A stretch of DNA of 64,000 bases from Acidimicrobiaceae bacterium (GTDB taxonomy: Bacteria > Actinomycetota > Acidimicrobiia > Acidimicrobiales > RAAP-2): NCBI GenBank assembly GCA_027306525.1, contig DAHUZM010000079.1, forward strand, positions 244 through 64,243, given 5' to 3'. The position numbers and the translations under genes were made by a program. Position 1 is the stretch's first letter; every line of letters begins with the position of its first letter. Positions 27,128-60,608 of this stretch are shown here, piece after piece. Below the pieces are notes generated by a model. It searched no databases, was not told where the DNA came from, and saw only the letters and a program-made list of their open reading frames with translations.

Positions 27128-28950
<1,823 letters not shown>

Positions 28951-28957
<7 letters not shown>

Positions 28958-30210
28958 TCGGCTCCATGCTCGAACTCGACCCGGGGCGCAAGGACGCCTT
29001 CGGCCGCCTCGTGCGCACGTGGCTCGCCCGTCGTCACGGGGCAGCCGATGCCGTGGAGGTGCTCGAGGTGGAGGTGCTCTTGGCCGGACGGCCGGGGCTC
29101 TTCGACGTGGTCGCCCTGTGTGGGGGCAGGCTCGCGCACCTCGTGGTCGGGCTCCACGAGGAGGGCTCGCCGCTGCACATGCTGCGACACGACGAGGACA
29201 GCGTGCTCGGTCGCTTCGAGGACGAGCACGGGATCGCTCTCGCCGTCGACGCCCTGTGGGACGCGGAGCTCGTCCCGCTCGTGATGGTGGCCGTGGTGGG
29301 CGAGGAGCCCTCGGTGGTGTCGATGGTGCGAGACGACCCCGAGGGCGTCGTGCTCAACGTCGACGACGCCGCCAGCTTGACGGTCTTCCCGTGGCTCACC
29401 GAGCGCCCGCACCCGGGCGTGGAGATGCTCGTCGCGCTGGACGAGGCCGGCTTCAACCATTTGGCCGCCCCGATCGCCCTCTGGCGCCGTCAGGGCCGCG
29501 ACCTCGGCATCGTCCAGGAGCTCCTCGCCGAGCGGGCCCACGGATGGGCGCTCGCCCTCACCTCGCTGCGCGACCTCTTCGCCACCGCCGGTCCTCCGGA
29601 GGAGGCCGGGGGCGACTTCGCCGACGAGGCGGTCGCGCTCGGCACCATGACCGCCAGGATGCACCTGGCGTCGGCCCATGCGTTCGGCCGGCGGATCGGC
29701 GCGCTGTCGGACTGGGCGGCCGAGGTCGAGCTCTTGGTGCGCGAGGTGTCGCCCGTCGCCGTCTCGCCCCGGGCGAGCGAGGCGCTGAGGGCGTTGCGCT
29801 CGAGCGCGGAGCGCTCGGCTACCGTGCGCACGCACGGGGATCTGCACCTCGGCCGGGTGGCGCGCACCAATGCCGGCTGGGTGGTCGCCGACTGGCTCCC
29901 CGGCGGGGTCGACGCCGAGGGAGCCGTCGTCTTCCGCTCCCCGCTCGCCGACGTCGCCGACATGCTGTGGTCGCTGCACTACGTGTCGGCGACCGCGCTC
30001 GAGGAGCGAGACCCCGCCGTGCGCGGCGAACTCGAGGCGCCCGCCCGCGCGTGGGAGGAGCGCAATCACCGGGCATTCCTGGCCGGGTACCTCTCCACGC
30101 CGGGCGTGGAGGATCTCGTCCCCACCGAGCATGCGGTGCTCGAGGCGCTCACCGCGCTCTTCGAGCTCGAGGAGCTCGTCCGCCGGGCCGGGCGGACGCC
30201 CGTGGGCTGA
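28951..30210 (+). CDS. mak: maltokinase (Mak/Pep2-like aminoglycoside-phosphotransferase fold)
   Basis: Follows treS with an ATGGTGA overlap. Kinase catalytic segment RTHGDLHLGRVAR...WVVADW. The ORF track start 28639 lies inside treS. Confidence 0.75.
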
Positions 30211-30248
30211 GCGGTTTGCGTCGGGGCCGGGCGTGGCACACTGAGCCG

Positions 30249-31295
30249 GTGCGGGTGGGGATACTCACGGGCGGCGGCGACTGCCCCGGGCTGAACGCCG
30301 TGATCCGGGCGGTGGTGATCGCCGGGCACGTCCGCTACCACTACGAGACCATCGGCTATCTCGACGGGTGGCGGGGGGTGCTCGAGCGGCGGTCCCGGCC
30401 GCTCGATCCCGTGGAGTCGGCTGGCCTGCTCGCCATGGGCGGCACGGTGCTCGGCACCTCGCGCACCAACCCCTTCGCCCAGGAGCGGGGGGGCGATCGG
30501 GTGGTCGAGAACCTCGCGTCGGCCCGAGTCGACGCGCTGATCGCCATCGGCGGCGACGACACCCTCGGGGTGGCCCACCGCCTGGGCGCCTTCGGGGTGT
30601 CGGTCGTGGGCGTGCCCAAGACGATCGACAACGACCTCTCGGGCACCGAGGTCACCTTCGGCTTCCAGACGGCCGTGCAGACCGCCACCGAGGCGATCGA
30701 CCGGCTGGGGACGACCGCCGAGTCCCATCACCGGGTGATCGTCTGCGAGGTCATGGGGCGCAACGCAGGGTGGATCGCGGCCGAGGCCGGGATCGCCGGG
30801 GGGGCGGCCGAGATCCTGGTGCCCGAGGTCCCCTTCGATCTCGACGCGGTCTGCGCCAAGCTGACCGCCCGCCACCAACGCGGCCAGTTCTTCTCGATCG
30901 TGGTCGTGGCCGAGGGGGCGCTCCCGGCCGACCCGGCGCTCGCCGAGTCGGCCACCTCGGCGCGCTCTGGCGCGTCGGCCGACGCCTTCGGCCATGCCCG
31001 CCTCGGGGGCATCGGGGACTGGCTTGCCGGCGAGGTCGAGCGACGCACCGGCTACGAGGCACGCGCGACGACCCTCGGGCACATCCAGCGGGGCGGGACG
31101 CCCACCGCTTATGACCGGGTGCTCGCGACCCGCTTCGGCGTGGCTGCGGTCGAGGCGGTCCACGACGGCGACTTCGGGATGATGGTGGCCCTGCGGTCGT
31201 GTGACATCGTGCGGGTCTCGTTGCAAGAGGCCGTGGGCAATCCGAAGACCGTCGACCCGGCGCTCTTGGAGGTCGCCGCCCCGTTCTTGGGCTGA
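30249..31295 (+). CDS. 6-phosphofructokinase (PfkA family; Asp/Lys signature suggests a possible PPi-dependent type)
   Basis: VRVGILTGGGDCPGLNAVIRAVV, IAIGGDDTLGVA, VGVPKTIDNDL, MGRNAGWIA. Only the last 348 codons of the 901-aa track ORF 28590..31295 are PFK. Confidence 0.9.
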   Translation: MRVGILTGGGDCPGLNAVIRAVVIAGHVRYHYETIGYLDGWRGVLERRSRPLDPVESAGLLAMGGTVLGTSRTNPFAQERGGDRVVENLASARVDALIAIGGDDTLGVAHRLGAFGVSVVGVPKTIDNDLSGTEVTFGFQTAVQTATEAIDRLGTTAESHHRVIVCEVMGRNAGWIAAEAGIAGGAAEILVPEVPFDLDAVCAKLTARHQRGQFFSIVVVAEGALPADPALAESATSARSGASADAFGHARLGGIGDWLAGEVERRTGYEARATTLGHIQRGGTPTAYDRVLATRFGVAAVEAVHDGDFGMMVALRSCDIVRVSLQEAVGNPKTVDPALLEVAAPFLG

Positions 31296-32908: not shown

Positions 32909-33577
32909 TCAGCGGGGCTCGGGGACCTCCATCGCCCGGGCGAGTGCCGCGTCGACGAGGCGTTCGGCCGCCGCTCGGTGCCCCGCCTCGAGCAGCCTGG
33001 GCAGGTCCCCGTCCAAGAGACCGGACCAGTCGAGCGCGTGGGTCGGGCGACCGGCGGCCCGCAATCCGAGGCGGGCCCGCTCGAGCACCTCGGCAAGGGG
33101 TTCGAGGTGGGCGCCGAGGACGGCGCCCAGCCGGCGACGGAGCCAGGCCGCGAGCGCAGGGCTCGCGCCGCCGGTCGAGACCGAGACCGTGACCCGCCCC
33201 TGGCGGTGGACCGAGGGGAGGAAGAAGCTGCAGTGCTCGGCGTCATCCGCGCTGTTGACCCAGACCCCGGCGGCGTCGGCATCGGCCGCGGCCCGTCGGT
33301 CGACCTCGGCGATGCCCGTCGCCGTGATGACGAGGCGGTAGCCGGAGGCCTCGCCACTGCGATACGGGCGCCGCCTGATCTGCACCGTCGCCTCGGCCCG
33401 CGTCGCCAGCTCGCTGATGGACCGGTCGATCTCGGGGGCGACGACGGTCACCTCGGCGCCGCACTCGTGGAGGCCGGCCACCTTGCGCGAGGCCACGGCC
33501 CCCCCGCCGACCACGAGGCAGGGCCGGCCCTCGAGGCGCAGGACGACCGGATAGGGCGGGCTCGGGTGCGGGGTCAT
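32909..33577 (-). CDS. precorrin-2 dehydrogenase / sirohydrochlorin ferrochelatase (SirC/Met8/CysG N-terminal type), siroheme synthesis
   Basis: Rossmann motif CLVVGGGAVASRKV...VTVVAP. ATG 33577 overlaps the cysN stop (ATGA). Confidence 0.8.
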   Translation of the reverse strand: MTPHPSPPYPVVLRLEGRPCLVVGGGAVASRKVAGLHECGAEVTVVAPEIDRSISELATRAEATVQIRRRPYRSGEASGYRLVITATGIAEVDRRAAADADAAGVWVNSADDAEHCSFFLPSVHRQGRVTVSVSTGGASPALAAWLRRRLGAVLGAHLEPLAEVLERARLGLRAAGRPTHALDWSGLLDGDLPRLLEAGHRAAAERLVDAALARAMEVPEPR

Positions 33578-34896
33578 CGGGCGGACGCCATCGAGCCCCG
33601 GGCGAGGGAGGGGGCACCGACCATGCACGCCGCCAGCGTCGCGTTGGTGGCCTCGTCGATCAGGACGAAGCTCCCGGTGACCCGGTTGGTGCCATAGGGG
33701 TCGACCGCAAGGGGGGTACCGGTCGTGAGCCGGACGACCCCGATCTCGTTGTCGAGAAGCCGCCCGGCGGGGACGAGGGCGAGCTCGTTCACCTCAAGGC
33801 GCGACAGCACCGCGTCGACCCGCGCCGGCGTCACCCGGGTCGTGTGCTTGATGCGCAGCCGGTCGCCGGCCGACAGCGCCCTGGCGCCGAACCAGCAGAC
33901 GGTCGCCTCGAGCTCGCTCGTCACGAGGGGCGGGGCGCCGGTCGACGCGATCAGATCGCCCCGAGAGACGTCGATGTCGTCGTCGAGCTCGACGGCCACC
34001 GACATGCCGACCGGCGCCTCTTCGAGCGAGCGGTCGTAGGTGCCGATGGAGGCGACGGTGCTCCGGCGCCCGCCGGGGAGCACGAGCACCTCGGCGCCGA
34101 CCCGCAGCGCTGCGCCCCCAAGGACCCCGGCGTACGAGCGGCGACCCTCGTGGCGGAGCACCCACTGCACGGCCAGGCGCGCCCCGGTGCCGTGCCCGGC
34201 CCCCTGCATGGCCGAGAACCCGCCGGCCGGGGCGGACTCGAGCGCGTCGAGCACCGTCGGACCCTCGTACCAGGGGGCGGCGGCCGAGCGCTCGACGACG
34301 TTGTCGCCCTGCAACGCCGAGATCGGGATGACCCGGCATTCGGCGATCGAGAGCCGCCGCGCGAGGGCGTGCACCTCGGCGGCGAGCTCGAGATAGGCGT
34401 CGCGGTCCCAGCCGACCAGGTCCATCTTGTTCGCCACGACCACCAGCTGCTCCACGCCGAGCAGGGCGGCGATGCAGGTGTGCCGGCGCGTCTGTTCGCG
34501 CAGCCCGCCGGTCACGTCGACGACCACGAGGGCGAGGTCCGCGGTGGACGCCCCGGTGGCCATGTTCGCCGTGTACTGCTCGTGCCCCGGGCAGTCAGCG
34601 ATGATGAACTTGCGCGTCGGGGTGGCGGCGTAGCGGTAGGCGACGTCGATCGTGATCCCCTGCTCGCGTTCGGCGCGGAGCCCATCGGTGACGAAGGACA
34701 GGTCCATCTCGGCGACACCCCGCCGCTTCGATGCCGCCGAGACCGCCTCGAGTTGATCGTCGAAGAGCTGGCGGGTGTCGAAGAGCAGCCTCCCGATGAG
34801 GGTCGACTTGCCGTCGTCGACCGATCCGATCGCTGCGAACCGGAGGAGGTCGACCCCGCCCGGCGCGGACGTTGCGGGGCCCCGGGTCGGGCCCAT
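33574..34896 (-). CDS. cysN: sulfate adenylyltransferase subunit 1 (GTPase CysN), no fused APS-kinase domain
   Basis: G1 GSVDDGKSTL, G3 DCPGHEQY, G4 NKMD. 440 aa, so EF-Tu-like domains only. Confidence 0.9.
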   Translation of the reverse strand: MGPTRGPATSAPGGVDLLRFAAIGSVDDGKSTLIGRLLFDTRQLFDDQLEAVSAASKRRGVAEMDLSFVTDGLRAEREQGITIDVAYRYAATPTRKFIIADCPGHEQYTANMATGASTADLALVVVDVTGGLREQTRRHTCIAALLGVEQLVVVANKMDLVGWDRDAYLELAAEVHALARRLSIAECRVIPISALQGDNVVERSAAAPWYEGPTVLDALESAPAGGFSAMQGAGHGTGARLAVQWVLRHEGRRSYAGVLGGAALRVGAEVLVLPGGRRSTVASIGTYDRSLEEAPVGMSVAVELDDDIDVSRGDLIASTGAPPLVTSELEATVCWFGARALSAGDRLRIKHTTRVTPARVDAVLSRLEVNELALVPAGRLLDNEIGVVRLTTGTPLAVDPYGTNRVTGSFVLIDEATNATLAACMVGAPSLARGSMASAR

Positions 34897-34899
34897 CTC

Positions 34900-35853
34900 C
34901 TAGAAGTACCCCTCGCGCTTGCGGTCCTCCATCGCCGTCTCGGAGAACCGGTCGTCGCCACGAGTTGCGCCGCGCTCGGAGGTTCGGGCGGTCGCCACCT
35001 CGGCGATGATCTCCCGTAGCGTCCTCGCCTCGGAGCGCACGGCCCCCGTGCAGGTCGCGTCGCCGACGGTGCGGAAACGGATGCTCGTCACCTCGGTGCG
35101 CTCACCGGGTTCGGGCACCACCCACCGGCCGGTCGCGAGCAGCATGCCGTCTCGCTCGACGACCGGGCGGCGGTGCGCGAAGTAGATCGACGCGAGCTCG
35201 ATCCCCTCGCGCTCGATGTACTGCCAGACGTCGAGCTCGGTCCAGTCCGAGAGGGGGAAGGCCCGCACATGCTCGCCCGGGAGCACCCGACCCTGGTAGA
35301 GCTGCCACAGCTCGGGGCGCTGGCGCTTGGGGTCCCACTGTCCGAAGACGTCGCGGAAGCTCAGCACCCGCTCCTTGGCTCGTGCCTTGTCCTCGTCGCG
35401 CCGCGCCCCGCCGATCGCCGCGTCGAAGCGATGCTCGGCGATCGCATCGAGGAGCGTGGTCGCCTGGAGCCGGTTGCGGGAGCGTCCGGGGCCCGGGTCT
35501 GGCACCCGGCCCGCAGCGATCGAGTCCTCGACCGAGGCGACGATGAGGTGCTCGCCGAGCTCGGCTATCCGGTCGTCTCGGTACGCGATGACCTCCTCGA
35601 AGTTGTGCCCGGTGTCGATGTGCATGATCGGAAAGGGGAACCCCCCGGGCCGGAACGCCTTCAGCGCGAGATGCAAGAGGACGGCCGAGTCCTTGCCCCC
35701 GCTGAAGAGCAGGACGGGCCGCTCGGACTCGGCGGCCACCTCCCGCAGCACGAAGATCGCGTGGCTCTCGAGCAGGGTCAGGTGATCGGCGCGGGGGCCG
35801 ATCGGCGCGTCGGGACCGGAGCGACGGGCGGTGGCGGCGGGGACGGTCGTCAT
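34900..35853 (-). CDS. cysD: sulfate adenylyltransferase subunit 2 (CysD)
   Basis: PP-loop LLFSGGKDSAV, MHIDTGHNFEE, GGARRDEDKARAKER, FRTVGD. ATG 35853 is chosen; the ORF track start 36195 is spurious. Confidence 0.93.
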   Translation of the reverse strand: MTTVPAATARRSGPDAPIGPRADHLTLLESHAIFVLREVAAESERPVLLFSGGKDSAVLLHLALKAFRPGGFPFPIMHIDTGHNFEEVIAYRDDRIAELGEHLIVASVEDSIAAGRVPDPGPGRSRNRLQATTLLDAIAEHRFDAAIGGARRDEDKARAKERVLSFRDVFGQWDPKRQRPELWQLYQGRVLPGEHVRAFPLSDWTELDVWQYIEREGIELASIYFAHRRPVVERDGMLLATGRWVVPEPGERTEVTSIRFRTVGDATCTGAVRSEARTLREIIAEVATARTSERGATRGDDRFSETAMEDRKREGYF

Positions 35854-35879
35854 GTCGTCGAGCGGTCGGGCCCAAAACC

Positions 35880-35928
35880 TGACCAACTTGGTCATGTATA
35901 CTCGCCGACAAGTCCCCCGACAAGTCCC
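35880..35928 (+). promoter_or_regulatory. candidate operator/promoter elements in the cysD-cysH divergent intergenic region
   Basis: Perfect palindrome TGACCAA-C-TTGGTCA (35880-35894). -10-like TATACT (35897-35902). Perfect tandem 12-mer CCGACAAGTCCC x2 (35905-35916, 35917-35928). Confidence 0.45.
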
Positions 35929-35992
35929 TGCGCTTCGGGGGCGGACCCCGTGGGACTTCGACGGGGCCATCGACGGGGAGAGGGCCGATTCC

Positions 35993-36661
35993 ATGCGCGA
36001 CGTCACCATCGGCCGAGCCGACGAGCTGGCGTCGGTCAGCGCCTCGCTCGAGCTCGCCCCGGCCTCCAAGGCGATCGAGTGGGCGCTCGAGCGCTTCTCG
36101 GGCTCGGTCGCGCTCGCGTGCTCCTTCCAGGACGTCGTGATCGTCGACCTTGCCCACGCGCTCGACCCGGGCATCGAGGTCGTGTTCTTGGACACCGGCG
36201 CGCACTTCGAAGAGACGCTCGACCTCGTCGAGCGGACCCGGCGCCGCTACGGGCTCAACCTCGTGGTCACGAGGCCGGCGCAGGACGCGGCGCACGGGCC
36301 GTGCGGGAGCGAGCAGTGCTGCCGCTTCCGCAAGGTGGAGCCCCTGCGCCGGGCGCTCGCAGGCAAGGCCGCGTGGATCACGGGACTGAAGCGCTCCGAT
36401 TCGCCGACCCGCTCGGCGATCCCGATCGTGCACCGTGACGAGTCCTTTGGGCTCGTGAAGGTGAACCCCCTCGCCACCTGGAGCGACCGGGACATCGCCT
36501 CCTACGAGCAGGACCACGCCCTGCCGGTGCATCCGCTCATGGGTCGGGGCTACCGCTCGATCGGCTGCGCACCGACCACCCGTCCCGTCGCCCAGGGCGA
36601 GGACGCGCGTGCGGGCCGCTGGGCGGGGTCGGACAAGACCGAGTGCGGTCTCCACGGCTGA
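35993..36661 (+). CDS. cysH: adenylyl-sulfate (APS)/PAPS reductase, thioredoxin-dependent (CysH family)
   Basis: PP-loop-like ALACSFQDVVIVDL, CC pair (EQCCRFRKVEPL), C-terminal KTECGLH. The second cluster motif reads CAPTT instead of CxxC. Confidence 0.88.
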   Translation: MRDVTIGRADELASVSASLELAPASKAIEWALERFSGSVALACSFQDVVIVDLAHALDPGIEVVFLDTGAHFEETLDLVERTRRRYGLNLVVTRPAQDAAHGPCGSEQCCRFRKVEPLRRALAGKAAWITGLKRSDSPTRSAIPIVHRDESFGLVKVNPLATWSDRDIASYEQDHALPVHPLMGRGYRSIGCAPTTRPVAQGEDARAGRWAGSDKTECGLHG

Positions 36662-36662
36662 G

Positions 36663-38438
36663 ATGGCGCGCGATCCCGACAACCCCTACGGCATCCGCTT
36701 CACGGGCAGCGAGCGCCCCATGGCGTTCATCAATCCGTATCGCTGGCTCGGCGAGCTCAACGAGGTCGAGCGGTGGAAGCTCGACCGTCACCCGCTCGAG
36801 GCCGCCCGCGACGTGATCGCCCGCTACTCGCTCGAGGGACCGGCGGCGATCTACGCCACTCCCGGCGAGGTCGAGCGGCTGAAGTGGGCGGGCATCTACC
36901 CCCAGCGCCAGGGCGGGGACGCCTTCATGCTTCGGGTGAAGGTCCCCGGCGGCCGGTTGACCGCCGAGCAGGTCTGCGAGATCGGCGTCGTCGCCGATGC
37001 CTTCGCCGAGGGGCCCGAGGACAGCGAGGTCTTCGGCAACCGCTACGCGGACATCACGACCCGCCAGGACATCCAGCTGCACTGGGTCCGGATCGAGGAT
37101 GTCCCGCGCATCTGGCAACGGCTGTTCGCCGTCGGCGTCACGACCCTGCAGGCCTGTGGGGATTCGGGCCGCAACGTCACCTGTTGCCCCGTGGCTGGCG
37201 TCGACCTCCACGAGGCCTTCGATGCCTACCCGGTCGCGCGGGCGGTGTCGGACTTCTTCACGGGCAATCGGGAGTACTCGAACCTGCCGAGGAAGTTCAA
37301 GATCGGCCTCACCGGGTGCACGGAGAACTGCGCCCGGATCGAGATCAACGACATCGGCATGTGGCCGGCGCGCCTCGAAGACGGGACTCTCGGATTCAAC
37401 GTGCTGGCCGGCGGCGGGCTCTCGGACGGCGAACGGATGGCGTCGGACCTCGACGTCTTCGTGGAGCCCGAGGGGTCCGTCGAGATCTGCCGGGCCATCG
37501 CCCAGGTCTTCGGTGAACTTGGCAACCGCGAGAACCGCGGTCTCGCCCGCATGCGCTACCTCGTCCAGGAGCTGGGGCCCGAGGGGTTCCGGGCGGCGCT
37601 CGCCGAGCGCAGCCCCCTCCACCTACGGCCGGCGGGGACCGAGCTCACCACCGGGTTCCGGGGTGACCACGTGGGCGTCCACCCCCAGCGCGGCGAGGGG
37701 CTCTTCTACGTGGGTTGCTCGGTGCCGGTCGGGCGGATGCGCGGCATCGAGCTGATCGAGCTGGCCCGGCTGGCCCGCACCTACGGCGACGGGACGGTCC
37801 GGCTCGGGACCGATCAGAACTTCGTGCTGACGGGCGTCGCCGAGCGGCGCCTCGACGCGCTCTTGGGCGAGGAGCTGCTCGCCACGTACTCCCCGTTCCC
37901 CGGTCCCTTCGAACGGGGCGTGGTCGCGTGCACGGGTTCGGAGTTCTGCCGCTTCGCCGTGGTCGAGACGAAGGAGCGAGCCGTCAAGCTCGCCCGGTGG
38001 CTCGACGGCCAGCTGCCCGGGGGCGCCGACGGGGCGGCGCCGGTCCCGGTCTCGCTCGGGCCAAGACCCGCTGGCCGGTCGCGGCCGAGGGGGGATCGGG
38101 GCGTCATCCGACTGCACTTCTCGGGCTGCTCGGCCGGCTGCGCGCAGCCCCAGATCGCGGACATCGGGCTGCGCGGGGACCTCGCCCACGTGGGTGAGCA
38201 CATCGAAGAGGCGGTCGACATCGGGCTCGGCGGCTCGCTCGGCCCCGACGCCGCCTTCATCGACTGGATCGCCGGGGCGGTGCCAGTCGAGATGACCGGC
38301 CCGGCCCTCGCGAACCTGCTCGCCCGCTTCGCCGAGGATCGGCGGAGCGACGAACCCTTCTACTCGTGGGCGCGGCGCACCGACAACGACGAGCTGCGTC
38401 GCATCATCGGCGGCGACCGGGCGGGGGCGCGACGATGA
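36663..38438 (+). CDS. assimilatory sulfite (or nitrite) reductase hemoprotein, ferredoxin-type SirA/NirA family
   Basis: 591 aa. Two NIR_SIR repeats, with siroheme/4Fe-4S cysteine motifs (TGCTENCARIEINDIG; ACTGSEFCRFA...SGCSAGCAQP). Located in the cys locus 1 nt after the cysH stop. Confidence 0.85.
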   Translation: MARDPDNPYGIRFTGSERPMAFINPYRWLGELNEVERWKLDRHPLEAARDVIARYSLEGPAAIYATPGEVERLKWAGIYPQRQGGDAFMLRVKVPGGRLTAEQVCEIGVVADAFAEGPEDSEVFGNRYADITTRQDIQLHWVRIEDVPRIWQRLFAVGVTTLQACGDSGRNVTCCPVAGVDLHEAFDAYPVARAVSDFFTGNREYSNLPRKFKIGLTGCTENCARIEINDIGMWPARLEDGTLGFNVLAGGGLSDGERMASDLDVFVEPEGSVEICRAIAQVFGELGNRENRGLARMRYLVQELGPEGFRAALAERSPLHLRPAGTELTTGFRGDHVGVHPQRGEGLFYVGCSVPVGRMRGIELIELARLARTYGDGTVRLGTDQNFVLTGVAERRLDALLGEELLATYSPFPGPFERGVVACTGSEFCRFAVVETKERAVKLARWLDGQLPGGADGAAPVPVSLGPRPAGRSRPRGDRGVIRLHFSGCSAGCAQPQIADIGLRGDLAHVGEHIEEAVDIGLGGSLGPDAAFIDWIAGAVPVEMTGPALANLLARFAEDRRSDEPFYSWARRTDNDELRRIIGGDRAGARR

Positions 38439-39691
38439 AGCGCTATCGCCTGCGCGAGCAGATGAACGGCATCGACGAGCCGCCGGGCAAGGTCTGGTTC
38501 TGGGAGCTGGCCGCCGCCGTGATCGACGCCGACCGATGCATCCAGTGCGGCACCTGCGTCGCCGCGTGCCCCTCCAATTCGATCGGGGTCGGGGAGCTCG
38601 GCCTGCCCGAGCTGGTGAAGATGTGCACGGGCTGTTCGCTGTGTTGGGACTTCTGCCCGAGGGGCGGGCTCCGCTACGAGGCGCTGTGGCCGCCGTCGAG
38701 CTCGGCCGAGGATGGCGCGCCGGCCGTCGTGCGCTCAGACGCCTCGGATCCCTACTGGAAGATCTCCGGCGGCCCGCCGGCCGATGGGCTGGGCGCGATC
38801 GTCGGGCGCTACGCGGTGCGCTCGGCCACTCGCAACCGGGGCGTCCAAGACGGTGGTGCGGTCAGCGCCCTGCTGGTCGCGTTGCTCGAGTCGGGGGACA
38901 TCGACGGCGCCCTGGTGGCCAAGCCGAGCTCGGACCCAGATGAGCCCTGGAAGGGTGTCGCAACCATCGCCCGCACGCCCGACGAGGTGCTCGAGGCGGC
39001 GGGCAGCTTCTACAACCAGACGATGGCGCTCGCCCAACTCGATCTCGCCAGGTACCAGCTCGGTCCGGACCCACGGCTCGCGGTGGTCGGCACCCCCTGC
39101 GAGATCCAGGGCATCCGTGCCATGCAGTCCCGCCGCTGGGCCACCGGCGCCCACCGGGTGGACTCGGTCGTGCTCACGATCGCGCTCATGTGCACCAAGA
39201 GCTTCGACTACGAGGGCCTCATCGTCCGCGAGCTGCGCGACAAGCGTCGAGTGGACCTCGAACGGGTGGCGAAGATCGACGTGGTCGACGGCAAGATGAT
39301 CGTCGAATATCGCGACGGCCAGCGGGCGGTGGACGAGCCGATCAAGCACTTCCACGGCACCGCGCTCAAGGGGTGCGACGAGTGCGCCGACTTTCTCGGA
39401 CGGAGCGCGGACATCTCGATGGGCAGCGTCGGCTCGCTCAGTGGATGGACGAGCGTCCTCATCAGAACCGATCGGGGCCTGGCCGCCTTCGAGCGGGCGC
39501 GACCCCGGCTCGACATCCGGGCGCTCGACGACCCGGACGCGCTCGTCAGGCTGGACAACCTGGACAAGCGGGTCGCCTTCCGCTCGCTCGGACGCCCGTT
39601 CGACCCCGATGGCCCGCTCTTCGTCGACTACGAGGCGCACGTCCGCCACTACGCGGGGAGCGATCGCCGGGCCGTGGTACACGCCCGATGA
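38435..39691 (+). CDS. FrhB/FdhB/FpoF-family iron-sulfur flavoprotein (coenzyme F420 hydrogenase/dehydrogenase beta-subunit family) with N-terminal 2x[4Fe-4S] ferredoxin domain
   Basis: CIQCGTCVAACP and CTGCSLCWDFCP motifs, then FrhB-like VQDGGAVSALL..., VGTPCEIQGIRAM, GCDECADFLGRSADISMGSVG...SVLIRTDRG. ATGA overlap with the sulfite reductase stop. Confidence 0.8.
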   Translation: MKRYRLREQMNGIDEPPGKVWFWELAAAVIDADRCIQCGTCVAACPSNSIGVGELGLPELVKMCTGCSLCWDFCPRGGLRYEALWPPSSSAEDGAPAVVRSDASDPYWKISGGPPADGLGAIVGRYAVRSATRNRGVQDGGAVSALLVALLESGDIDGALVAKPSSDPDEPWKGVATIARTPDEVLEAAGSFYNQTMALAQLDLARYQLGPDPRLAVVGTPCEIQGIRAMQSRRWATGAHRVDSVVLTIALMCTKSFDYEGLIVRELRDKRRVDLERVAKIDVVDGKMIVEYRDGQRAVDEPIKHFHGTALKGCDECADFLGRSADISMGSVGSLSGWTSVLIRTDRGLAAFERARPRLDIRALDDPDALVRLDNLDKRVAFRSLGRPFDPDGPLFVDYEAHVRHYAGSDRRAVVHAR

Positions 39692-39984
39692 CCGCCCCCC
39701 TCCGCTTGCACGTCCCGAGCGATCCCGGCCGCGAGCATTGGGCGAGGTCGGTGCTCGAGAGCGCCACGCTCGACGAGGTCATCGAGAAGGAGGACGGCAT
39801 CGCGCAGTGGTTGTGGGAGCGCTGGCGCGTCCTCGAGACCGTTGGGCTCGACCGTGCTCGCTTCGTGGCGATCACGGCCGGGTATCGGCGCGAGCTGTGG
39901 CTCTGGCTGATGGGGGAGCGGACCTGGGCCCAGTGCTGCTCGGGCCTGATCGGCCGAGTGGATCGCCGTCTCGGGCTCCGATAG
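39688..39984 (+). CDS. hypothetical protein (98 aa), translationally coupled to the FrhB-like gene
   Basis: ATGA overlap with the upstream stop. GC3-rich. Trp/Arg-rich sequence with a CC pair (WAQCCSGL). No recognisable family. Confidence 0.5.
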   Translation: MTAPLRLHVPSDPGREHWARSVLESATLDEVIEKEDGIAQWLWERWRVLETVGLDRARFVAITAGYRRELWLWLMGERTWAQCCSGLIGRVDRRLGLR

Positions 39985-39998
39985 TCCACAATCCCCTG

Positions 39999-40829
39999 GT
40001 GGCATCGGCGGACACCGGCTCGCCCCGAGGCGAAGGGCCGCTCGTCTCGCTCTCCAAGGTGCGGGTCGTGCGCGACGAGCGCCCGCTCATCGACGAGGTG
40101 GACTGGGTGCTGCGGGCGGGCAAGCGGTGGGTGATCCTCGGGCCGAACGGCTCGGGAAAGACCACCATGCTGCGGGTCGCTGGCGGACGCCTGTGGCCGA
40201 GCGCCGGCACCGTCGAGATCCTCGGTCGGCGCCTTGGCACGGTGGACCTACGCGAGCTGCGGGGCCGCGTGTCGTTCGTGAGCGGGGCCGTCGCTCGGGA
40301 GCTCCGGCCGACCCAGCGCGTGCGCGAGGTGGTGGCGAGCGGCAAGTTCGGGGCGCTCGAGACCTGGTGGCATACCTACGAGGATGACGACTGGGCACGG
40401 GCCGACCGTCTGCTTGCGGACACCGAGGTGGGCGGGCTCGGCGACCGGGAGTTCGGGGTCATCTCGGAGGGGGAGCGCCAGCACGTGCTGCTCGCAAGGG
40501 CCCTCATGGGCCGACCCGAGCTGTTGCTGCTCGACGAGCCCGCGGCCGGGCTCGACATGGGAGCGCGCGAACGGTTGCTCGCCGTGCTCGGCGCCCTGGC
40601 CCGCGACGACTCGGCGGCACCGCTCGCCATGGTGACCCACCACACCGAGGAGATCCCTCCGGGGATCACCCACGCTGTCCTGCTCTCGGGCGGCCGCGTG
40701 CTCTCGAGTGGGCCGGTCGACGAGGTGCTCACCTCCGAATCGGTGTCCGAGTGCTTCTCGGTCCCCGTGGTGGTGGGCCGCGACGGCGATCGGTGGTGGA
40801 GTCGCGCCGGCCCCACGCGCTCGGGATAA
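39999..40829 (+). CDS. ABC transporter ATP-binding protein (stand-alone, ModF/YlmA-like)
   Basis: Walker A GPNGSGKTT, signature ISEGERQHVLLARAL, Walker B LLLLDEPAAGLD, H-loop VTHH. No adjacent permease. GTG 39999 or GTG 40056 as start. Confidence 0.8.
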   Translation: MASADTGSPRGEGPLVSLSKVRVVRDERPLIDEVDWVLRAGKRWVILGPNGSGKTTMLRVAGGRLWPSAGTVEILGRRLGTVDLRELRGRVSFVSGAVARELRPTQRVREVVASGKFGALETWWHTYEDDDWARADRLLADTEVGGLGDREFGVISEGERQHVLLARALMGRPELLLLDEPAAGLDMGARERLLAVLGALARDDSAAPLAMVTHHTEEIPPGITHAVLLSGGRVLSSGPVDEVLTSESVSECFSVPVVVGRDGDRWWSRAGPTRSG

Positions 40830-40913
40830 CCCTCCCGTCACCATCCACCGCACGAAAGCCACCCGTCGATAGCGTGAAATGCGTCGGAGGACGATGGAGG
40901 GGAGTGGCACCGG

Positions 40914-41903
40914 GTGATCGTGCTGATCCTGGTCGCGATCTTGTGGCTCGCGGTGCTCGTCCCAGGGATCATCTCGAAGCTTTCGGAACGCCGGAACGCC
41001 GGCTCGATCGGGCGCTTCCACGAACGGCTCCATCTCCTTGAGCGGACCGGTCCGAAGCTCGTCCAGCCCGCCTACCGACTCACGGGCACCGACGGGGCGA
41101 GCTCGTCGGTTCCCATGATCGTGCCGGTCGCACCTCCCCCGGTTCGGCCGAGCCTCAGACTCGTGTCATCGCCTGCAGAGGGAGCCTCAGCCATGTTCGA
41201 ACCCACGAGTGACGAGCCGACCGCCGTCATCGACATCGCCGACGTTGTCGTCCAGATGCGGCGGGGTGCGAGCGCCTATGGACACGACGGCTATGAGCAC
41301 CACGCCCATGAGCACGCCTACGAGTACGAGGAGGAGACCCACGGCCAGGGCGGGCCGGACGAGGCCTACGGGTACGAGGACGGACTTCAAGGGTACGGGG
41401 ATGAGTCCTACGACGACGGGGACGGGGCCTACCGGTACGAGGACGGGGCCTACGAATACGTCGATCACCTCGGCTTCGACGAGCACGACGAGGACATCGA
41501 GCGCCGAAGGGAGCGCCGCAGTTCGGCTGCGTTCGAGCGCCAGCACCAAGCCCGGCGCCGGCGCCGGAATGCCTTTGGCTCGCTCTGCGCCATTGCCGCG
41601 TTCACCGGCCTCCTCGGTCTGGCCCACCCATTGCGCGGGGCGTGGGTCGTCTCGGGGATCGCCCTCGTGGTCCTCGCGGGATTTGTGGGTCTTGCCGCCT
41701 ACGGTCAACGCATGGAGGCAGAGCGCCGTCACCTGGCCAAGCTCGAGAGGGCCGAGCGAGAGCGCGGTGGCGACTACGGGCACGAGTCGACGATCTTGAA
41801 GTACCTCTCTTCGGATGAGCTCTCCCAGTACCAAGAGGCCATGGCCGATTTCTACGAATCCGAAGACGTCCGCCTCGCCGGTGGCGCACGAGCGATCGGT
41901 TGA
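40914..41903 (+). CDS. membrane protein with an acidic Tyr/Glu/Asp/Gly/His-rich low-complexity central region
   Basis: N-terminal TM (IVLILVAILWLAVLVPGII). Central YGHDGYEHHAHEHAYEYEEETHGQGGPDEAYGYEDGLQGYGDESYDDGDGAYRYEDGAYEY. Basic stretch, then two C-terminal TM helices. Confidence 0.6.
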   Translation: MIVLILVAILWLAVLVPGIISKLSERRNAGSIGRFHERLHLLERTGPKLVQPAYRLTGTDGASSSVPMIVPVAPPPVRPSLRLVSSPAEGASAMFEPTSDEPTAVIDIADVVVQMRRGASAYGHDGYEHHAHEHAYEYEEETHGQGGPDEAYGYEDGLQGYGDESYDDGDGAYRYEDGAYEYVDHLGFDEHDEDIERRRERRSSAAFERQHQARRRRRNAFGSLCAIAAFTGLLGLAHPLRGAWVVSGIALVVLAGFVGLAAYGQRMEAERRHLAKLERAERERGGDYGHESTILKYLSSDELSQYQEAMADFYESEDVRLAGGARAIG

Positions 41904-41972
41904 GCCAACCCAGCTCCTGATCGCCAACAGCGGGCAAGCAGGGCACCCACGAGGACTAGCCTGATCGTCGCC

Positions 41973-42045
41973 GGGGGTGTAGCTCAGTTGGCAGAGCGCT
42001 ACGTTCGCAACGTAGAAGTCGGCGGTTCGAGTCCGCTCACCTCCA
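41973..42045 (+). tRNA. tRNA-Ala (anticodon CGC)
   Basis: Hand-folded cloverleaf of 73 nt. Acceptor GGGGGTG/CACCTCC with the G3:U70 Ala identity pair. D arm GCTC-AGTTGGCA-GAGC. Anticodon arm CTACG-TTCGCAA-CGTAG. T arm GGCGG-TTCGAGT-CCGCT. Discriminator A. CCA is not fully encoded (ACCg). Confidence 0.93.
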
Positions 42046-42342
42046 CCGCAAGGTTTGGATTCGCGCGCCACTCCGCCATGGCGCGAGCCGCTGACGTGCA
42101 GCTTCGCGATCGCCCCTCGCGTTACCCACAGGGTTTATCGACGGAATTTATCGACGGCCTATCACGAGTGCCGTACGCAGCCCTATGCAGACGACCGCGC
42201 GCCACACCGCCAACACGCTGGAACCTTCGCGTAAAGTCGGCCTGGAAGGTGTGGCGGTGCCGTATGCAGCCCTATGCACGCCATGGCGGCCGCCATACTC
42301 AAGACTGACCTCCAAGCACTCGATCACGATGCACCTTCACCT

Positions 42343-42600: not shown

Positions 42601-43782
42601 GTGGGTGCCGAGAACCCATCCGCCCAGCTCAGGCGGCCATCCGGTACTCGTGGATGAGCCCGCCCAGACGCTCGGTTCTTCGTAGCTTGATGGGGTCGAC
42701 GTCACCGATTGGGGCTGGAGTCCTTTCGGACGCGGAGGGTGCGCGCTGGGAGAGCGACCGGTGGGGACGGTGCGAGTTGTAGTGCTCGACGTACTCGGCG
42801 AGCACGGTCTCGAGGTGACGGCGGCCGAGGATGAGCATCCGGTCGAGGCATTCGCGCCGGAGCGTGCCGATCACGCGCTCGCAGACCGCGTTCGCCTGCG
42901 GCGCTCGGACCGGGGTCCTGATGACCCTGATGCCCTGGGCTGCGAACACGGCGTCGAAGGACACGGTGAACTTGGTGTCCCGATCCCGGAGGAGGAACTT
43001 GACCGCGCAAGCCTGCTCGGCGAGCTCCATGCAGAGGTTGCGGGCCTGCTGTGTCGCCCAGTCGGCGATCGGCTTGGCGGTCACACCGGCGATCCGCACG
43101 AGGCGCGTGTCGTGGTGGATGAAGACGAGCACGTACAGCCGCCGGAGAAGCACCGTGTCGACGGTTAAGAAGTCGCACGCGAGCAGGCCCGTGGCCTGCG
43201 CTCGGAGGAACTCCGCCCAGGTGGGCCCCGACCGCCGGGGTGAGGGCTCGATGCCGTTTCGCTTCAAGATCGCCCAGACGCTCGAAGGCGAGATCATGAC
43301 GTCCATGGTGGCGAGTTCGCCCTGGATCCTCCGGTAGCCCCAGCCTGGGTTCTCCCTCGCCAACCTGAGAACGAGTGCGGCGGTCCCTTTCGGGATGGCA
43401 GGCCGGCCAGGACGGCCGTGCGGATAGGTCCAGCGCTTGGCGACGAGGTCACGGTGCCATCGCAGCAAGGTTGCCGGCTGAACGAAGAAGCGCTCGAGAC
43501 GCTGGCGGGGGAGCAGTCGTGCCAGCGCAGCCAGCAGGGCGCGGTCAGCGGGCTGCAGGATCGGTCGCTGAACCTGGCGCCGGAGTACAGCAACCTCATG
43601 GCGGAGCATGACGACCTCGATCGAGAGATCCGTGTGCGAGCGACAGAGGAGCCGGATCAGTTGGAGGAGGCGGCAGAGCGCCCGGTACAGGAACGACAGG
43701 GTCACCGCCGGATGCTCGCCGCATGATACGAGCACCGTCAAAGTCCAGCTCGCGGACCTCGGATGGCGTTGTCGGCACGCAC
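42601..43782 (-). mobile_element. IS481-like insertion sequence (single rve/DDE transposase), 1182 bp, apparently intact
   Basis: Imperfect terminal inverted repeats found by hand. IRL 42601-42622 is GTGGGTGCCGAGAACCCATCCG. The reverse complement of IRR 43760-43782 is GTGCGTGCCGACAACGCCATCCG (2 mismatches, 1 indel). They bracket the transposase ORF tightly. Confidence 0.75.
42629..43741 (-). CDS. IS481-family DDE transposase (integrase core domain)
   Basis: 370 aa. N-terminal LRHEVAVLRRQVQRP...ATLLRWHRDLV, HTH LRLARENPGWGYRRIQGEL, then the rve core (ACDFLTVDT...FIHHDTR...DRDTKF...PQANAVCERVIGTLRRE...YNSHRPHRSL). Confidence 0.88.
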   Translation of the reverse strand: MTVLVSCGEHPAVTLSFLYRALCRLLQLIRLLCRSHTDLSIEVVMLRHEVAVLRRQVQRPILQPADRALLAALARLLPRQRLERFFVQPATLLRWHRDLVAKRWTYPHGRPGRPAIPKGTAALVLRLARENPGWGYRRIQGELATMDVMISPSSVWAILKRNGIEPSPRRSGPTWAEFLRAQATGLLACDFLTVDTVLLRRLYVLVFIHHDTRLVRIAGVTAKPIADWATQQARNLCMELAEQACAVKFLLRDRDTKFTVSFDAVFAAQGIRVIRTPVRAPQANAVCERVIGTLRRECLDRMLILGRRHLETVLAEYVEHYNSHRPHRSLSQRAPSASERTPAPIGDVDPIKLRRTERLGGLIHEYRMAA

Positions 43783-54423: not shown

Positions 54424-54741
54424 TCCCGGCGATCCCACGCACGGCGATGTCGAATCGCGATTGCCCCTTAGTTCGCCGATCCGTCTTGACTCATGAGACG
54501 ATTCGGCCGCGCTCGGCCTTAGCGTTCGGATCCCGAGGCTTCGATCCCTACTCTCCGTTCCTCGGCAGAGCCAGGTTGCTGAGCCGACCCGGATCTTGCC
54601 GAGATCTAGGGGCGCACACATGCGACCCGTCGAACCCAGTCCAGCCATCCCGGGCCCCCGAGAAGATCGTCGATGGGGAGACGAGCGTCTGGACGCGGCG
54701 TGGAGCCGCCAAAGGCGTGGGCCGTTCGCCTCTGGTGGTCG

Positions 54742-60578: not shown

Positions 60579-60608
60579 CTTGACAGTTGAAGCTGGGTTC
60601 AAGTCAAG
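60579..60608 (+). promoter_or_regulatory. imperfect palindrome, candidate MerR-type operator in the divergent methyltransferase/merR region
   Basis: CTTGAC-AG-TTGAA-GCTGGG-TTCAA-GTCAAG. Outer 6-bp and inner 5-bp arms are perfect; there is a 2-nt bulge on the left. Confidence 0.4.

Follow-up and report, generated by a model that had tools for sequence, protein, structure and literature searches.

A NirA/SirA-type sulfite reductase gene coupled to an FrhB-type flavo-iron-sulfur gene in Acidimicrobiales: a candidate bacterial member of the predicted aFsr type

In a 64-kb stretch of Acidimicrobiales DNA (the window), the gene for a NirA/SirA-type siroheme sulfite reductase (sirA; product, alpha) overlaps the gene for an FrhB-type flavo-iron-sulfur protein (beta), and this gene coupling is conserved across two domains of life. 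We propose, with a probability of roughly 55%, that these proteins are subunits of an assimilatory sulfite reductase belonging to the predicted 'aFsr' type. In this model, alpha would reduce CysH-derived sulfite to sulfide, which would be used for cysteine, and beta would be the reductase subunit dedicated to it. A hydride donor, most likely F420H2, would reduce the FAD of beta, from which single electrons would pass to beta's own [4Fe-4S] cluster and then to the two clusters of its N-terminal ferredoxin domain; this domain would dock on alpha at the free-ferredoxin site and feed the siroheme-coupled cluster, with three F420H2 consumed per sulfite. A 98-aa protein encoded next (orf98) would serve as a clade-specific accessory module of beta.

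Table 1. Features of the sulfite reductase locus, in window coordinates.
Feature	Coordinates	Strand	Description and basis
SirC/CysG-N-like	32909..33628	-	siroheme synthesis gene; PF13241 NAD_binding_7 (1e-28), PF14824 Sirohm_synth_M (5e-8)
cysN	33574..34896	-	sulfate adenylyltransferase GTPase subunit; PF00009 GTP_EFTU (9e-41), PF22594
cysD	34900..35800	-	sulfate adenylyltransferase subunit 2; PF01507 PAPS_reduct domain (3e-41)
cysH	35999..36661	+	(P)APS reductase; start approximate; PF01507 (3e-43); NF002537 245 bits
sirA (alpha)	36663..38438	+	NirA/SirA-type siroheme-[4Fe-4S] assimilatory sulfite reductase, 591 aa
beta	38435..39691	+	FrhB/Fsr-N-type flavo-iron-sulfur protein, 418 aa; proposed F420H2-oxidising electron-input subunit
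beta ferredoxin domain, residues 28-77	38516..38665	+	Fer4 dicluster models
beta FrhB core, residues 126-360	38810..39514	+	PF04422 + PF04432
beta C-terminal extension, residues 361-418	39515..39691	+	family-specific; model secondary structure, alignments
orf98	39688..39984	+	98-aa all-alpha Trp-rich protein; proposed accessory (gamma) subunit or beta extension
solitary ABC-type ATPase	39999..40829	+	directly 3' of orf98; start approximate; PF00005

The stop/start chaining of sirA, beta and orf98 reported in the first-pass annotation is present at both junctions: the beta start codon lies within cgATGAag, a 4-nt overlap with sirA, and the orf98 start codon lies within a second ATGA at the end of beta. 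The cysH stop codon (TGA, 36659-36661) falls 1 nt before the sirA ATG, and orf98 ends with TAG. The cys genes do not form the single operon that had been described, but two divergent units, with cysD, cysN and the SirC/CysG-N-like gene on the minus strand (32909 to ~35800). The SirC/CysG-N-like gene, with which the cysDN unit ends, is of the precorrin-2 dehydrogenase/ferrochelatase type and has homologs in most related loci, and cysN is syntenic in most of them. The true start of cysD is uncertain; the longest ORF, to 36195, would overlap cysH, and tblastn matches in related loci span ~34900-35800. The earlier label 'APS-route' is insecure, as CysH reaches 245 bits with the NCBIfam PAPS-reductase model NF002537, above its cutoff of 154, but falls short of the APS-reductase cutoff (202.5 bits against 235.3); its cluster motif is a variant CC...CAPTT rather than CC...CxxC. 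The ABC-type ATPase gene, a conserved neighbour that lies ~100 nt 3' of orf98 in ~47 of 80 related loci, is an unproven member of the system; the name of its best NCBIfam match, 'F420-0 ABC transporter ATPase', is inapplicable because the score of 136 bits is far under the cutoff of 372.

The coupling of sirA to the FrhB-like gene is more than chance. In each of the 80 related Acidimicrobiales loci fetched, the gene immediately upstream of beta was a NIR_SIR gene. The pair also occurred in all 7 distant contexts, which span Archaea and Actinomycetota: Haloterrigena, Bathyarchaeia, Nitrososphaerota, a MAG named Actinomycetota, two contigs from metagenomes and an unlabelled genome contig. The two genes usually overlap. 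Of the 76 related loci that could be scored, 70 kept the 4-nt sirA/beta overlap, and the order cysH-sirA-FrhB-like-orf98 recurred across loci that are 62-88% identical. Beta-linked alpha proteins share 39-62% identity among themselves and only 32-41% with a classical cysH-linked SirA whose gene shares a locus with one of theirs. Because the pair is kept in the 80 Acidimicrobiales genomes fetched and in every distant context, beta is very probably the subunit dedicated to electron input into the sulfite reductase; the conserved synteny confirms the linkage described in the first-pass annotation and supports the electron-input role suggested there.

The domain content, cofactor motifs and fold behind the aFsr model are directly evident in beta, whose architecture, by sequence and predicted structure, is that of the N-terminal half of Fsr. 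Profile searches matched residues 28-77 to several Fer4 dicluster models and the remainder to PF04422 FrhB_FdhB_N (2e-20) and PF04432 FrhB_FdhB_C (1e-34), the domain order read earlier from four motifs (CIQCGTCVAACP, CTGCSLCWDFCP, VGTPCEIQGIRAM and GCDECADFLGRSADISMGSVG), all of which we found in the sequence. The ferredoxin domain holds two CxxCxxCxxxCP motifs, for two [4Fe-4S] clusters; seven of the eight cysteines are invariant across the family, and the eighth, Cys38, is present in 63 of 64 members. In 8RIU, the F420-reductase subunit attaches to its partner enzyme through the equivalent domain (PMC11493965), and by analogy we infer that this domain of beta docks on alpha, together with the physical complex and its docking geometry. 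Alignment to Methanothermobacter marburgensis FrhB, with residue roles from PMC3591093, located FAD-site motifs (QDGG, Y193), ligands of the core [4Fe-4S] cluster (C222/C253/C314/C317) and the F420-proximal motifs G286-K287 (FrhB G166-K167) and G330-S331-V332-G333-S334 (GSVGS; FrhB S209/V210). Among PDB sequences, beta matched 8riu_B (a CODH F420-reductase subunit) at 4e-38, followed by 9tn7_A, Fsr 7np8 (3e-35) and FrhB (7e-33), compared to only 3e-4 for HCAR. Foldseek, run with the AlphaFold2 model of beta (pLDDT 87), gave the same order as sequence (8riu_B, 8rja_E, FrhB, Fsr), with TM-scores of 0.66-0.71 for the F420 modules and 0.54 for HCAR. The C-terminal extension forms two helices in the model (pLDDT ~90).

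Judged from sequence and model, F420H2 would most likely be the donor, since the motifs adjoining FAD and F420 are kept. Counting against F420H2, one of the two lysines proposed as F420-phosphate binders in FrhB is Asp in beta. All 19 Acidimicrobiales members carry K or R at position 287, a basic residue that is not kept in the haloarchaeal clade. A dedicated electron input with another donor, either NAD(P)H reducing the FAD or reduced ferredoxin feeding the clusters, is unlikely but by no means far-fetched, and would make the complex a functional analogue of CysJI or of an Fpr2/ferredoxin system. All of the synteny evidence fits such a donor equally well, beta scores far under the NCBIfam FrhB and FpoF cutoffs (170 vs 269 and 127 vs 475), the proposed phosphate-binding basic residues are half kept here and lost in the haloarchaeal clade, and the 64-kb window contains no F420 biosynthesis genes or genes for F420-dependent enzymes. 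Nor is an FrhB fold proof of F420 use, as HCAR uses ferredoxin and a tetrapyrrole substrate. However, the nearest sequence and structural relatives of beta are without exception proven F420 enzymes, by sequence at least 30 orders of magnitude above HCAR; the GSVGS loop, whose FrhB counterpart packs against the F420 ring, is conserved; and Pfam searches detected no Rossmann or NAD(P)-binding domain in beta. FsrII, moreover, uses F420H2 despite a reversed charge at the phosphate-site position (PMC9295563), and F420 production is known or predicted in the lineages with the pair (PMC8498797), among them members of Acidimicrobiia (PMC3910706, PMC7771536). In the CODH and Fwd of Ca. Ethanoperedens, free-standing modules with the architecture of beta reduce F420 and dock through their ferredoxin domain (PMC11493965).

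Alpha matched PF01077 (1e-48) and PF03460 (3e-36), and the solved structures closest to it are those of plant ferredoxin-nitrite reductase and Mycobacterium tuberculosis NirA/SirA. Its pocket motif is LPRKFK (K-x-K), where tobacco nitrite reductase has K-W-N, and PRK-x-K occurs in all beta-linked alpha proteins, mostly as LPRKFK; this motif and the cysH/cysDN/sirC-like context argue for sulfite rather than nitrite as the probable substrate. We consider it very improbable that alpha is an assimilatory nitrite reductase or another NIR_SIR enzyme, such as a CobG-like oxygenase, and that the pair acts in nitrogen or corrin metabolism instead of sulfur metabolism. Ferredoxin-nitrite reductases are the top NCBIfam and PDB matches of alpha (403 and 294 bits), the CobG model matches at 176 bits and in one locus (L087) the pair adjoins cobalamin genes, but both family scores are under their cutoffs (594 and 235, respectively), M. 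tuberculosis 'NirA' is also nitrite-reductase-like by sequence and yet is a sulfite reductase according to the literature, the pocket is K-x-K as in sulfite reductases and not K-x-N, and alpha shows translational linkage to cysH in the window and, in locus L088, to cysH/cysD/cysN. It is likewise hardly credible that beta, instead of donating electrons to alpha, works in siroheme or corrinoid metabolism as an HCAR/BciB-type tetrapyrrole reductase or dehydrogenase that depends on ferredoxin: the structural match to HCAR is significant (Foldseek E 4e-17) and some homologous loci have ferrochelatase, CbiX, CbiC/CbiG or uroporphyrinogen methyltransferase genes beside the pair, but HCAR is far weaker than the F420 modules by both E-value and TM-score, a SirC/CysG-N-like gene for siroheme steps is already in the cluster (also in L088 and L089), and the constant partner of beta is a NIR_SIR gene with overlapping stop/start, tetrapyrrole genes being only occasional neighbours.

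The preferred reading, an aFsr-type sulfite reductase, has a precedent: a two-gene arrangement was predicted in haloarchaea and named aFsr by Susanti and Mukhopadhyay (2012; PMC3448663), and was still termed putative in 2022 (PMC9295563). The arrangement, which the first-pass annotation took not to have been characterised, is therefore uncharacterised but not undescribed, and the Acidimicrobiales pair appears to be a bacterial member of this predicted, putative type. Reviews place the FrhB-linked sulfite reductase family in Archaea only. Haloarchaeal aFsr likewise has an aSir/NirA-type alpha adjacent to a beta consisting of FrhB with two N-terminal [4Fe-4S] clusters; relative to the pair of Haloterrigena turkmenica, identity is 42% for beta (E 5e-93) and 45% for alpha (435 bits). 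In contrast to haloarchaeal aFsr, the host here is bacterial, the pair lies directly behind cysH, beta is without an R-x-H-x-Y-E-x-x-C tail and is followed by a separate 98-aa protein, and alpha lacks the N-terminal rhodanese region of the Haloterrigena protein.

The term 'split Fsr' does not fit, as homology to Fsr lies in the FrhB half only; alpha is of the two-repeat NirA/SirA type and the reductase half of Fsr is Dsr-like (PMC3448663). Group I Fsr of Methanococcales (PDB 7NP8, 7NPA; PMC10229431) catalyses the overall reaction proposed here, and its N-terminal half corresponds to beta in order, sequence and fold (TM-score 0.66), but it is one polypeptide, its reductase half has a single Dsr-like repeat plus an extra ferredoxin domain, and it serves methanogens mainly in the detoxification of sulfite. 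The best matches of beta, ACDS zeta (8RIU) and FwdI (8RJA; Foldseek 2e-27) of Ca. Ethanoperedens thermophilum (PMC11493965), are free-standing like beta, with an N-terminal two-cluster ferredoxin anchor and an FAD/[4Fe-4S] core, and ACDS zeta also has a C-terminal extension; these archaeal proteins partner CO dehydrogenase and formylmethanofuran dehydrogenase and reduce F420, whereas bacterial beta has a different partner and would oxidise F420H2. M. tuberculosis SirA (NirA, Rv2391; PDB 1ZJ8) is of the same family as alpha and holds the same pathway position adjoining cysH; alpha aligns with it at full length (2e-56) but is nearer to haloarchaeal aFsr-alpha (435 vs 194 bits). To our knowledge, M. 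tuberculosis SirA has no FrhB-type partner gene and receives electrons from free ferredoxin. Dedicated partners exist elsewhere, as with Escherichia coli CysJ and CysI or Corynebacterium glutamicum fpr2 and cysIXHDNYZ, where a flavoprotein encoded with the haemoprotein splits a two-electron hydride into single electrons for siroheme, but their folds (diflavin reductase or FNR) are unrelated to FrhB and the donor is NADPH.

Orf98 is a real gene, with a GC3 of 0.90 similar to that of its neighbours, homologs in 76 of 80 related loci and 420 homologous clusters, every source-named one from an Acidimicrobiales bacterium. Its AlphaFold2 model has a pLDDT of 94, its core motif is YRRELWLWLxGERTWxQCCSGLIGR, and it had no match in Pfam or the PDB. 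The earlier suggestion that it is a third component gained support from its conservation as a partner and its fusion to beta in three sequences (P0244, L041 and L071); an orf98-like domain is also fused to CysD in L088. The CC pair that had been singled out is nearly invariant in stand-alone Acidimicrobiales copies but absent from the fused or diverged P0244 and L088. Beta ends in ...DRRAVVHAR, without the Cys tail of non-Acidimicrobiales homologs, and orf98 is present exactly where beta lacks that tail. This pattern, new in this analysis, suggests that orf98 is a clade-specific module that replaces the conserved C-terminal Cys tail of beta, for which it may act as an accessory.

The first-pass annotation described a sulfite reductase gene (sirA, here alpha), a gene for an FrhB-family protein (beta), and a small open reading frame (orf98) chained by stop/start overlaps, and this chain was confirmed: ATGA overlaps join alpha to beta at 38435 and beta to orf98 at 39688. 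In a window of ~70% GC, third-position GC for the three genes was 0.90–0.92, as in real genes of this genome. Their placement within a single cys operon did not hold up, as cysD, cysN, and a siroheme gene diverge from cysH; the locus is thus a two-armed sulfate-assimilation cluster rather than one operon. The solitary ATPase gene that follows was also found 3' of orf98 in ~47 of 80 related loci; the best-scoring name for it in NCBIfam, 'F420-0 ABC transporter ATPase', was rejected at 136 bits versus a cutoff of 372. A scan of 35500–42200 found no promoters or terminators, which is uninformative at 70% GC in an actinobacterium, and a search for evidence of co-transcription found no RNA runs containing the locus, the matching runs being DNA. 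These DNA runs came chiefly from mine-drainage, soil, and sediment metagenomes, and the close relatives of the window are all metagenome-assembled genomes, almost all labelled Acidimicrobiales or Acidimicrobiaceae.

Features of the sulfate-assimilation locus and of the window downstream of it
Feature	Position	Strand	Remarks
cysD, cysN, SirC/CysG-N-like siroheme gene		opposite to cysH	divergent from cysH
cysH	35999-36661	+	TGA at 36659-36661, just before the sirA ATG at 36663
alpha (sirA)	36663-38438	+	591 aa; ATG start at 36663
beta	38435-39691	+	418 aa; start within ATGA, 4-nt overlap with alpha
orf98	39688-39984	+	98 aa; start within ATGA overlapping the end of beta
ABC-type ATPase	39999-40829		solitary, without adjacent permease; directly after orf98
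Integrase-core gene (rve_3)	42629-43741	-	
P-type ATPase	54673-57528		
MerR-family regulator	60587-61081		
P-type ATPase	61396-63765		

The alpha protein matched PF01077 (NIR_SIR) and, in two stretches, PF03460 (NIR_SIR_ferr), and contains the cluster cysteine motifs and the sequence LPRKFK. Its nearest solved relatives were plant ferredoxin-nitrite reductases (294 bits) and M. tuberculosis NirA/SirA (194 bits). Where tobacco nitrite reductase has PRKWN, alpha has PRKFK, and the K-x-K arrangement is that of sulfite reductases (K215/K217 in E. coli SiRHP versus N226 in nitrite reductase). Given this motif and the coupling to cysH, alpha probably acts on sulfite. Models for dsrA and dsrB scored alpha at only E 6.5e-4 and 1e-5, respectively, and alpha is a two-repeat NirA/SirA protein rather than a Dsr-like one, the group III Dsr-LP proteins having one repeat and an inserted ferredoxin domain. 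Residues 449–481 of alpha (38007-38105) form a low-complexity insertion rich in Pro, Gly, Ser, and Arg compared to homologs, with a length that varies among relatives.

The beta protein begins with two CxxCxxCxxxCP motifs (residues 35–75), followed by a linker (residues 87–118; 38693-38788) that is a low-complexity Pro/Gly/Ser/Arg-rich insertion compared to homologs and is disordered in the structural model (pLDDT 44–61), by FrhB_N and FrhB_C domains, and by a 58-residue C-terminal extension. The FrhB assignment proposed from the sequence was borne out by profile searches, in which PF04422 and PF04432 both scored above their cutoffs. In NCBIfam, FrhB and FpoF were nearest to beta at scores far under their cutoffs, indicating that beta belongs to a distinct subfamily. 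Among solved structures, beta matched an F420-reductase subunit on the CO dehydrogenase of an ethane-oxidising archaeon (8riu_B, E 4e-38), a 613-aa protein with an FrhB domain (9tn7_A, E 5e-38), the fused methanogen sulfite reductase Fsr (7np8_A, E 3e-35), FrhB itself (3zfs_C, E 7e-33), and the chlorophyll reductase HCAR (5dqr_A, E 3e-4). An AlphaFold2 model of beta built from 64 homologs (pLDDT 87, pTM 0.87) ranked its relatives in Foldseek as the sequence search had done. A tetrapyrrole function like that of the ferredoxin-dependent chlorophyll reductases HCAR and BciB, which share the FrhB fold, was rejected as the main reading: 5dqr gave a TM-score of just 0.54 along with its poor E-value, and beta lacks both a close sequence relationship to these enzymes and a tetrapyrrole-pigment context, with no photosynthesis genes nearby and a sulfite reductase as its invariable neighbour.

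To assess how widely alpha and beta occur together, we scanned one genome per species, which yielded at least 580 regions encoding relatives of beta, and examined the best 80 as loci. These 80 were all close relatives, almost all labelled Acidimicrobiales or Acidimicrobiaceae. A sirA homolog lay directly upstream of beta in 80 of 80 loci, and the 4-nt alpha/beta overlap was identical in 70 of the 76 related loci that could be scored; cysH was found 5' of sirA on every contig long enough to show it, apart from three divergent loci (L072, L077, and L078). A second protein search with distant seeds (40–50% identity) revealed a large clade including Halobacteria (Haloterrigena, Natrinema, Halopiger, Natronococcus, Halorhabdus, and others), Bathyarchaeia, Nitrososphaerota, and other Actinomycetota. 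In 7 of 7 of these distant contexts, a NIR_SIR gene was immediately upstream of beta, either abutting it, overlapping it, or within ~50 nt, and several also contained cysH, cysD, cysN, or siroheme genes, as in locus L088, with the order cysH-sirA-beta-cysD-cysN-sirC. All beta-linked alpha proteins contain PRK-x-K, mostly as LPRKFK, and are 39–62% identical to each other, compared to 32–41% identity with a classical cysH-linked SirA that shares a locus with one of them. Conservation of the pair, both in close relatives and in distant contexts, thus argues strongly on comparative grounds for joint action of alpha and beta, and lends good support to the functional link that had been suspected between the reductase and its FrhB-type partner. 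Two apparent alpha–beta fusions (P0092 and P0283) were set aside as Rosetta-stone evidence, because both are truncated reading frames and a single indel at the ATGA overlap would create such fusions as frameshift artefacts.

Several neighbourhoods of distant pairs differ in content. Locus L089 carries two consecutive NIR_SIR paralogs in one genome (482-2140 and 3439-5004) that are only 35% identical; the classical copy is followed by cysH and a 152-aa open reading frame, and the beta-linked copy by SirC-like and uroporphyrinogen methyltransferase genes. In L087 (1-3003), the pair comes immediately 3' of CbiG/TP_methylase, CbiC, and CbiX genes, placing it in a corrinoid/siroheme rather than a cys context in some lineages. 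The Haloterrigena alpha protein (L081, 4583-7000) has an N-terminal rhodanese region, and a DsrE-like gene lies directly 3' of beta in Bathyarchaeia and Nitrososphaerota loci (L083, 7705-8088; L086, 2772-3152). These sulfur-carrier domains beside archaeal pairs suggest that persulfide or sulfide handling is linked to the enzyme.

A comparable pair is known from the literature. Susanti and Mukhopadhyay (2012; PMC3448663) noted free-standing homologs of the Fsr N-terminal half beside assimilatory-type sulfite reductases in haloarchaea and named the predicted two-subunit enzyme aFsr, with aFsr-alpha being the reductase (aSir) and aFsr-beta an F420H2 dehydrogenase subunit (PMC3448663). The text of that paper mentions haloarchaea alone, and its tree legend includes Haloterrigena turkmenica and two bacterial open reading frames, from Rubrobacter and Thermobaculum (PMC3448663). 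The same group still termed aFsr-beta 'putative' in 2022 (PMC9295563), and we found no biochemical study of aFsr in the literature, where the string 'aFsr' otherwise matches Streptomyces AfsR and unrelated uses. The first-pass annotation had regarded the two-component arrangement as uncharacterised, which stands as far as biochemistry is concerned, but the arrangement itself has been described since 2012.

Like aFsr, the window pair consists of adjacent genes for a NirA/SirA/aSir-type alpha subunit and a beta subunit that combines an FrhB module with two N-terminal ferredoxin-type [4Fe-4S] centres, and its beta and alpha proteins are 42% and 45% identical, respectively, to the Haloterrigena pair, far closer than to any characterised enzyme. 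Beta scored 274 bits against the H. turkmenica (Htur) aFsr-beta and ≤134 bits against any solved FrhB, Fsr, or F420-reductase chain, and by these pairwise bit scores it groups with haloarchaeal aFsr-beta and not with FpoF, the Fsr N-terminal half, or FrhB. In composition and gene adjacency the pair therefore matches aFsr, for which F420H2-dependent sulfite reduction is predicted, and the locus is a bacterial instance of this published predicted concept rather than a new kind of system. The label 'split Fsr' does not apply strictly. Fsr of groups I and II is a single polypeptide with a Dsr-like reductase half, whereas the window has two genes with their own stop and start, as do 70 of 76 related loci, and a NirA/SirA-type alpha. 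Modular docking of beta would have a structural precedent by analogy: in Ca. Ethanoperedens, free-standing modules with the same domain order dock onto CO dehydrogenase and formylmethanofuran dehydrogenase via their ferredoxin domain and reduce F420 (PMC11493965).

To evaluate the electron donor, we aligned beta to M. marburgensis FrhB and interpreted the alignment with the residue assignments published by Mills et al. (PMC3591093). Residues C222, C253, C314, and C317 of beta align to the FrhB [4Fe-4S] ligands C104, C134, C192, and C195 and are invariant across the family; QDGG at the start of the FAD helix is kept in 61–64 of 64 family members, and Y193 in 61 of 64. In these cysteines, the FAD-site QDGG and Tyr, and both FrhB domains, beta resembles the FrhB-type modules of the F420-coupling FDRC family. 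Near the F420 site, beta keeps the GSVGS loop (FrhB S209-V210) that lies against the F420 ring in FrhB and the Gly-Lys of the FrhB IGKGK turn (G286-K287); position 287 is Lys or Arg in 19 of 19 Acidimicrobiales sequences examined and is not conserved in the haloarchaeal clade. FrhB K75 (in the K75-Y76 loop) is Phe in beta, at a position that also varies among proven F420 enzymes, and FrhB K165, one of the proposed phosphate-binding lysines, is Asp in beta and Glu in the proven F420-reducing ACDS zeta; FsrII oxidises F420H2 despite reversed charge at that F420 site (PMC9295563). These F420-proximal motifs are suggestive, not diagnostic, and Foldseek also found the FrhB fold in ferredoxin-dependent enzymes.

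No NAD(P)-binding domain was detected in beta, and F420 production is known or predicted for the lineages in which the pair occurs (PMC8498797). Given also that its nearest relatives are proven F420 enzymes and that FAD and F420 motifs are kept, F420H2 is the most likely, albeit unproven, predicted donor to beta, and F420 is a plausible part of the enzyme model as a prediction. For Acidimicrobiia, our literature search on F420 gave class-level statements only; the F420 pathway has been reported within this class in Ilumatobacter and Ca. Actinomarinales (PMC3910706, PMC7771536). None of roughly 45 window genes scanned was F420-related, including 30 further proteins searched against NCBIfam (rho, prfA, glyA, the atp operon, murA, treS, P-type ATPases, and similar), but this result covers the 64-kb window only and gives no answer either way on F420.

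Outside Acidimicrobiales, beta ends in ...TDRxP-(6-10)-R-x-H-x-Y-[ED]-x-x-C, with Cys as the last residue (L081–L087, L089, and alignments). Acidimicrobiales beta proteins end right after ...TDRxPVVxxR, and orf98 is the next gene in 76 of 80 loci. No locus with a Cys-tailed beta contains orf98, so that tail and orf98 are mutually exclusive, an exchange that is new as far as we can tell. The orf98 protein has 420 homologous clusters, each source-named one coming from an Acidimicrobiales bacterium, and the core motif YRRELWLWLxGERTWxQCCSGLIGR. It had no match in Pfam or NCBIfam, and its all-helical model (pLDDT 94) found no PDB match better than E 2.8. It is fused to beta in P0244 (523 aa) and in L041 and L071, the latter two with frame changes near the end of beta that could be frameshift errors. 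In L088, beta has neither a Cys tail nor a separate orf98; cysD there (6164-7492, 442-aa product) begins 4 nt short of the end of beta and has an N-terminal extension holding a diverged orf98-like segment, EVRLWVAGERSWPALASSVAGRALR (hmmsearch E 6.5e-4 against open reading frames of all 89 loci). This join may be a merged gene call, or it may hint that sulfate activation and sulfite reduction are physically linked. The orf98 module, free or fused, always directly follows beta, and the simplest reading is that it belongs to the beta subunit as an accessory part. The suggestion that orf98 with its CC pair forms a third component thus gains from gene position and fusions but loses on the CC pair itself, which is almost invariant in the free form, is absent from P0244 and L088, and is therefore unlikely to be essential to core function. 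The orf98 N-terminus (RLHVPxEP) resembles the archaeal tail R-x-H-x-Y-E in spacing, but its His is not conserved in P0244, and homology between the two was set aside as speculation.

We assign a probability of roughly 0.4, and thus hold only tentatively, that the locus encodes a bacterial F420H2:sulfite oxidoreductase in which orf98 is a hitherto unrecognised third subunit that functionally replaces the Cys tail of archaeal beta. In this position, orf98 might, for example, contact the alpha active site or link the reductase to CysD. If this reading is true, Bacteria would gain their first demonstrated FrhB/FDRC-type F420 enzyme, and F420 would have a place in the central sulfur assimilation of widespread soil, peat, and mine-drainage Actinomycetota. 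A review restricts FrhB-type F420 enzymes to Euryarchaeota (PMC8498797) and a classification paper places the FrhB class exclusively in Archaea (PMC8518648), indicating that the breadth seen here is not common knowledge; for haloarchaea, the role of F420 in physiology has been described as undetermined. Should the aFsr model hold, F420 would supply electrons to sulfite reduction, a core biosynthetic step, in Acidimicrobiales, haloarchaea, Bathyarchaeia, and ammonia-oxidising archaea, and actinobacterial sulfite reduction would not be uniformly ferredoxin-dependent. As a compact, translationally coupled set of three genes, the locus is a good bacterial test case, in which co-expression could put a 14-year-old prediction to a direct test, and its one new anatomical detail, the exchange of tail and orf98, points to a functionally important interaction surface.

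Other features of the window were observed. Its CysH has the CC pair of APS reductases and SIGCAPTT in place of SIGCxPCT as the second motif, with the fourth cluster Cys changed to Thr. Of 66 loci scored, 65 have another residue at this position (64 with SIGCAPTT and one with SIGCAPPT), the sole exception being the canonical CAPCT of L089, from another lineage; the variant may have a three-Cys cluster or be cluster-free. From 42000 to 64000, GC falls from ~0.71 to 0.62–0.68, and this region, with its integrase-core, P-type ATPase, and MerR-family genes, may have been acquired as an island for metal or ion homeostasis, in keeping with a mine-drainage origin. At 28590-31295, the longest open reading frame (901 aa) matches phosphofructokinase only over residues 555–857, and an overlapping open reading frame in another frame (28639-30210) also has coding-like third-position GC, so the gene structure upstream of pfk is provisional.
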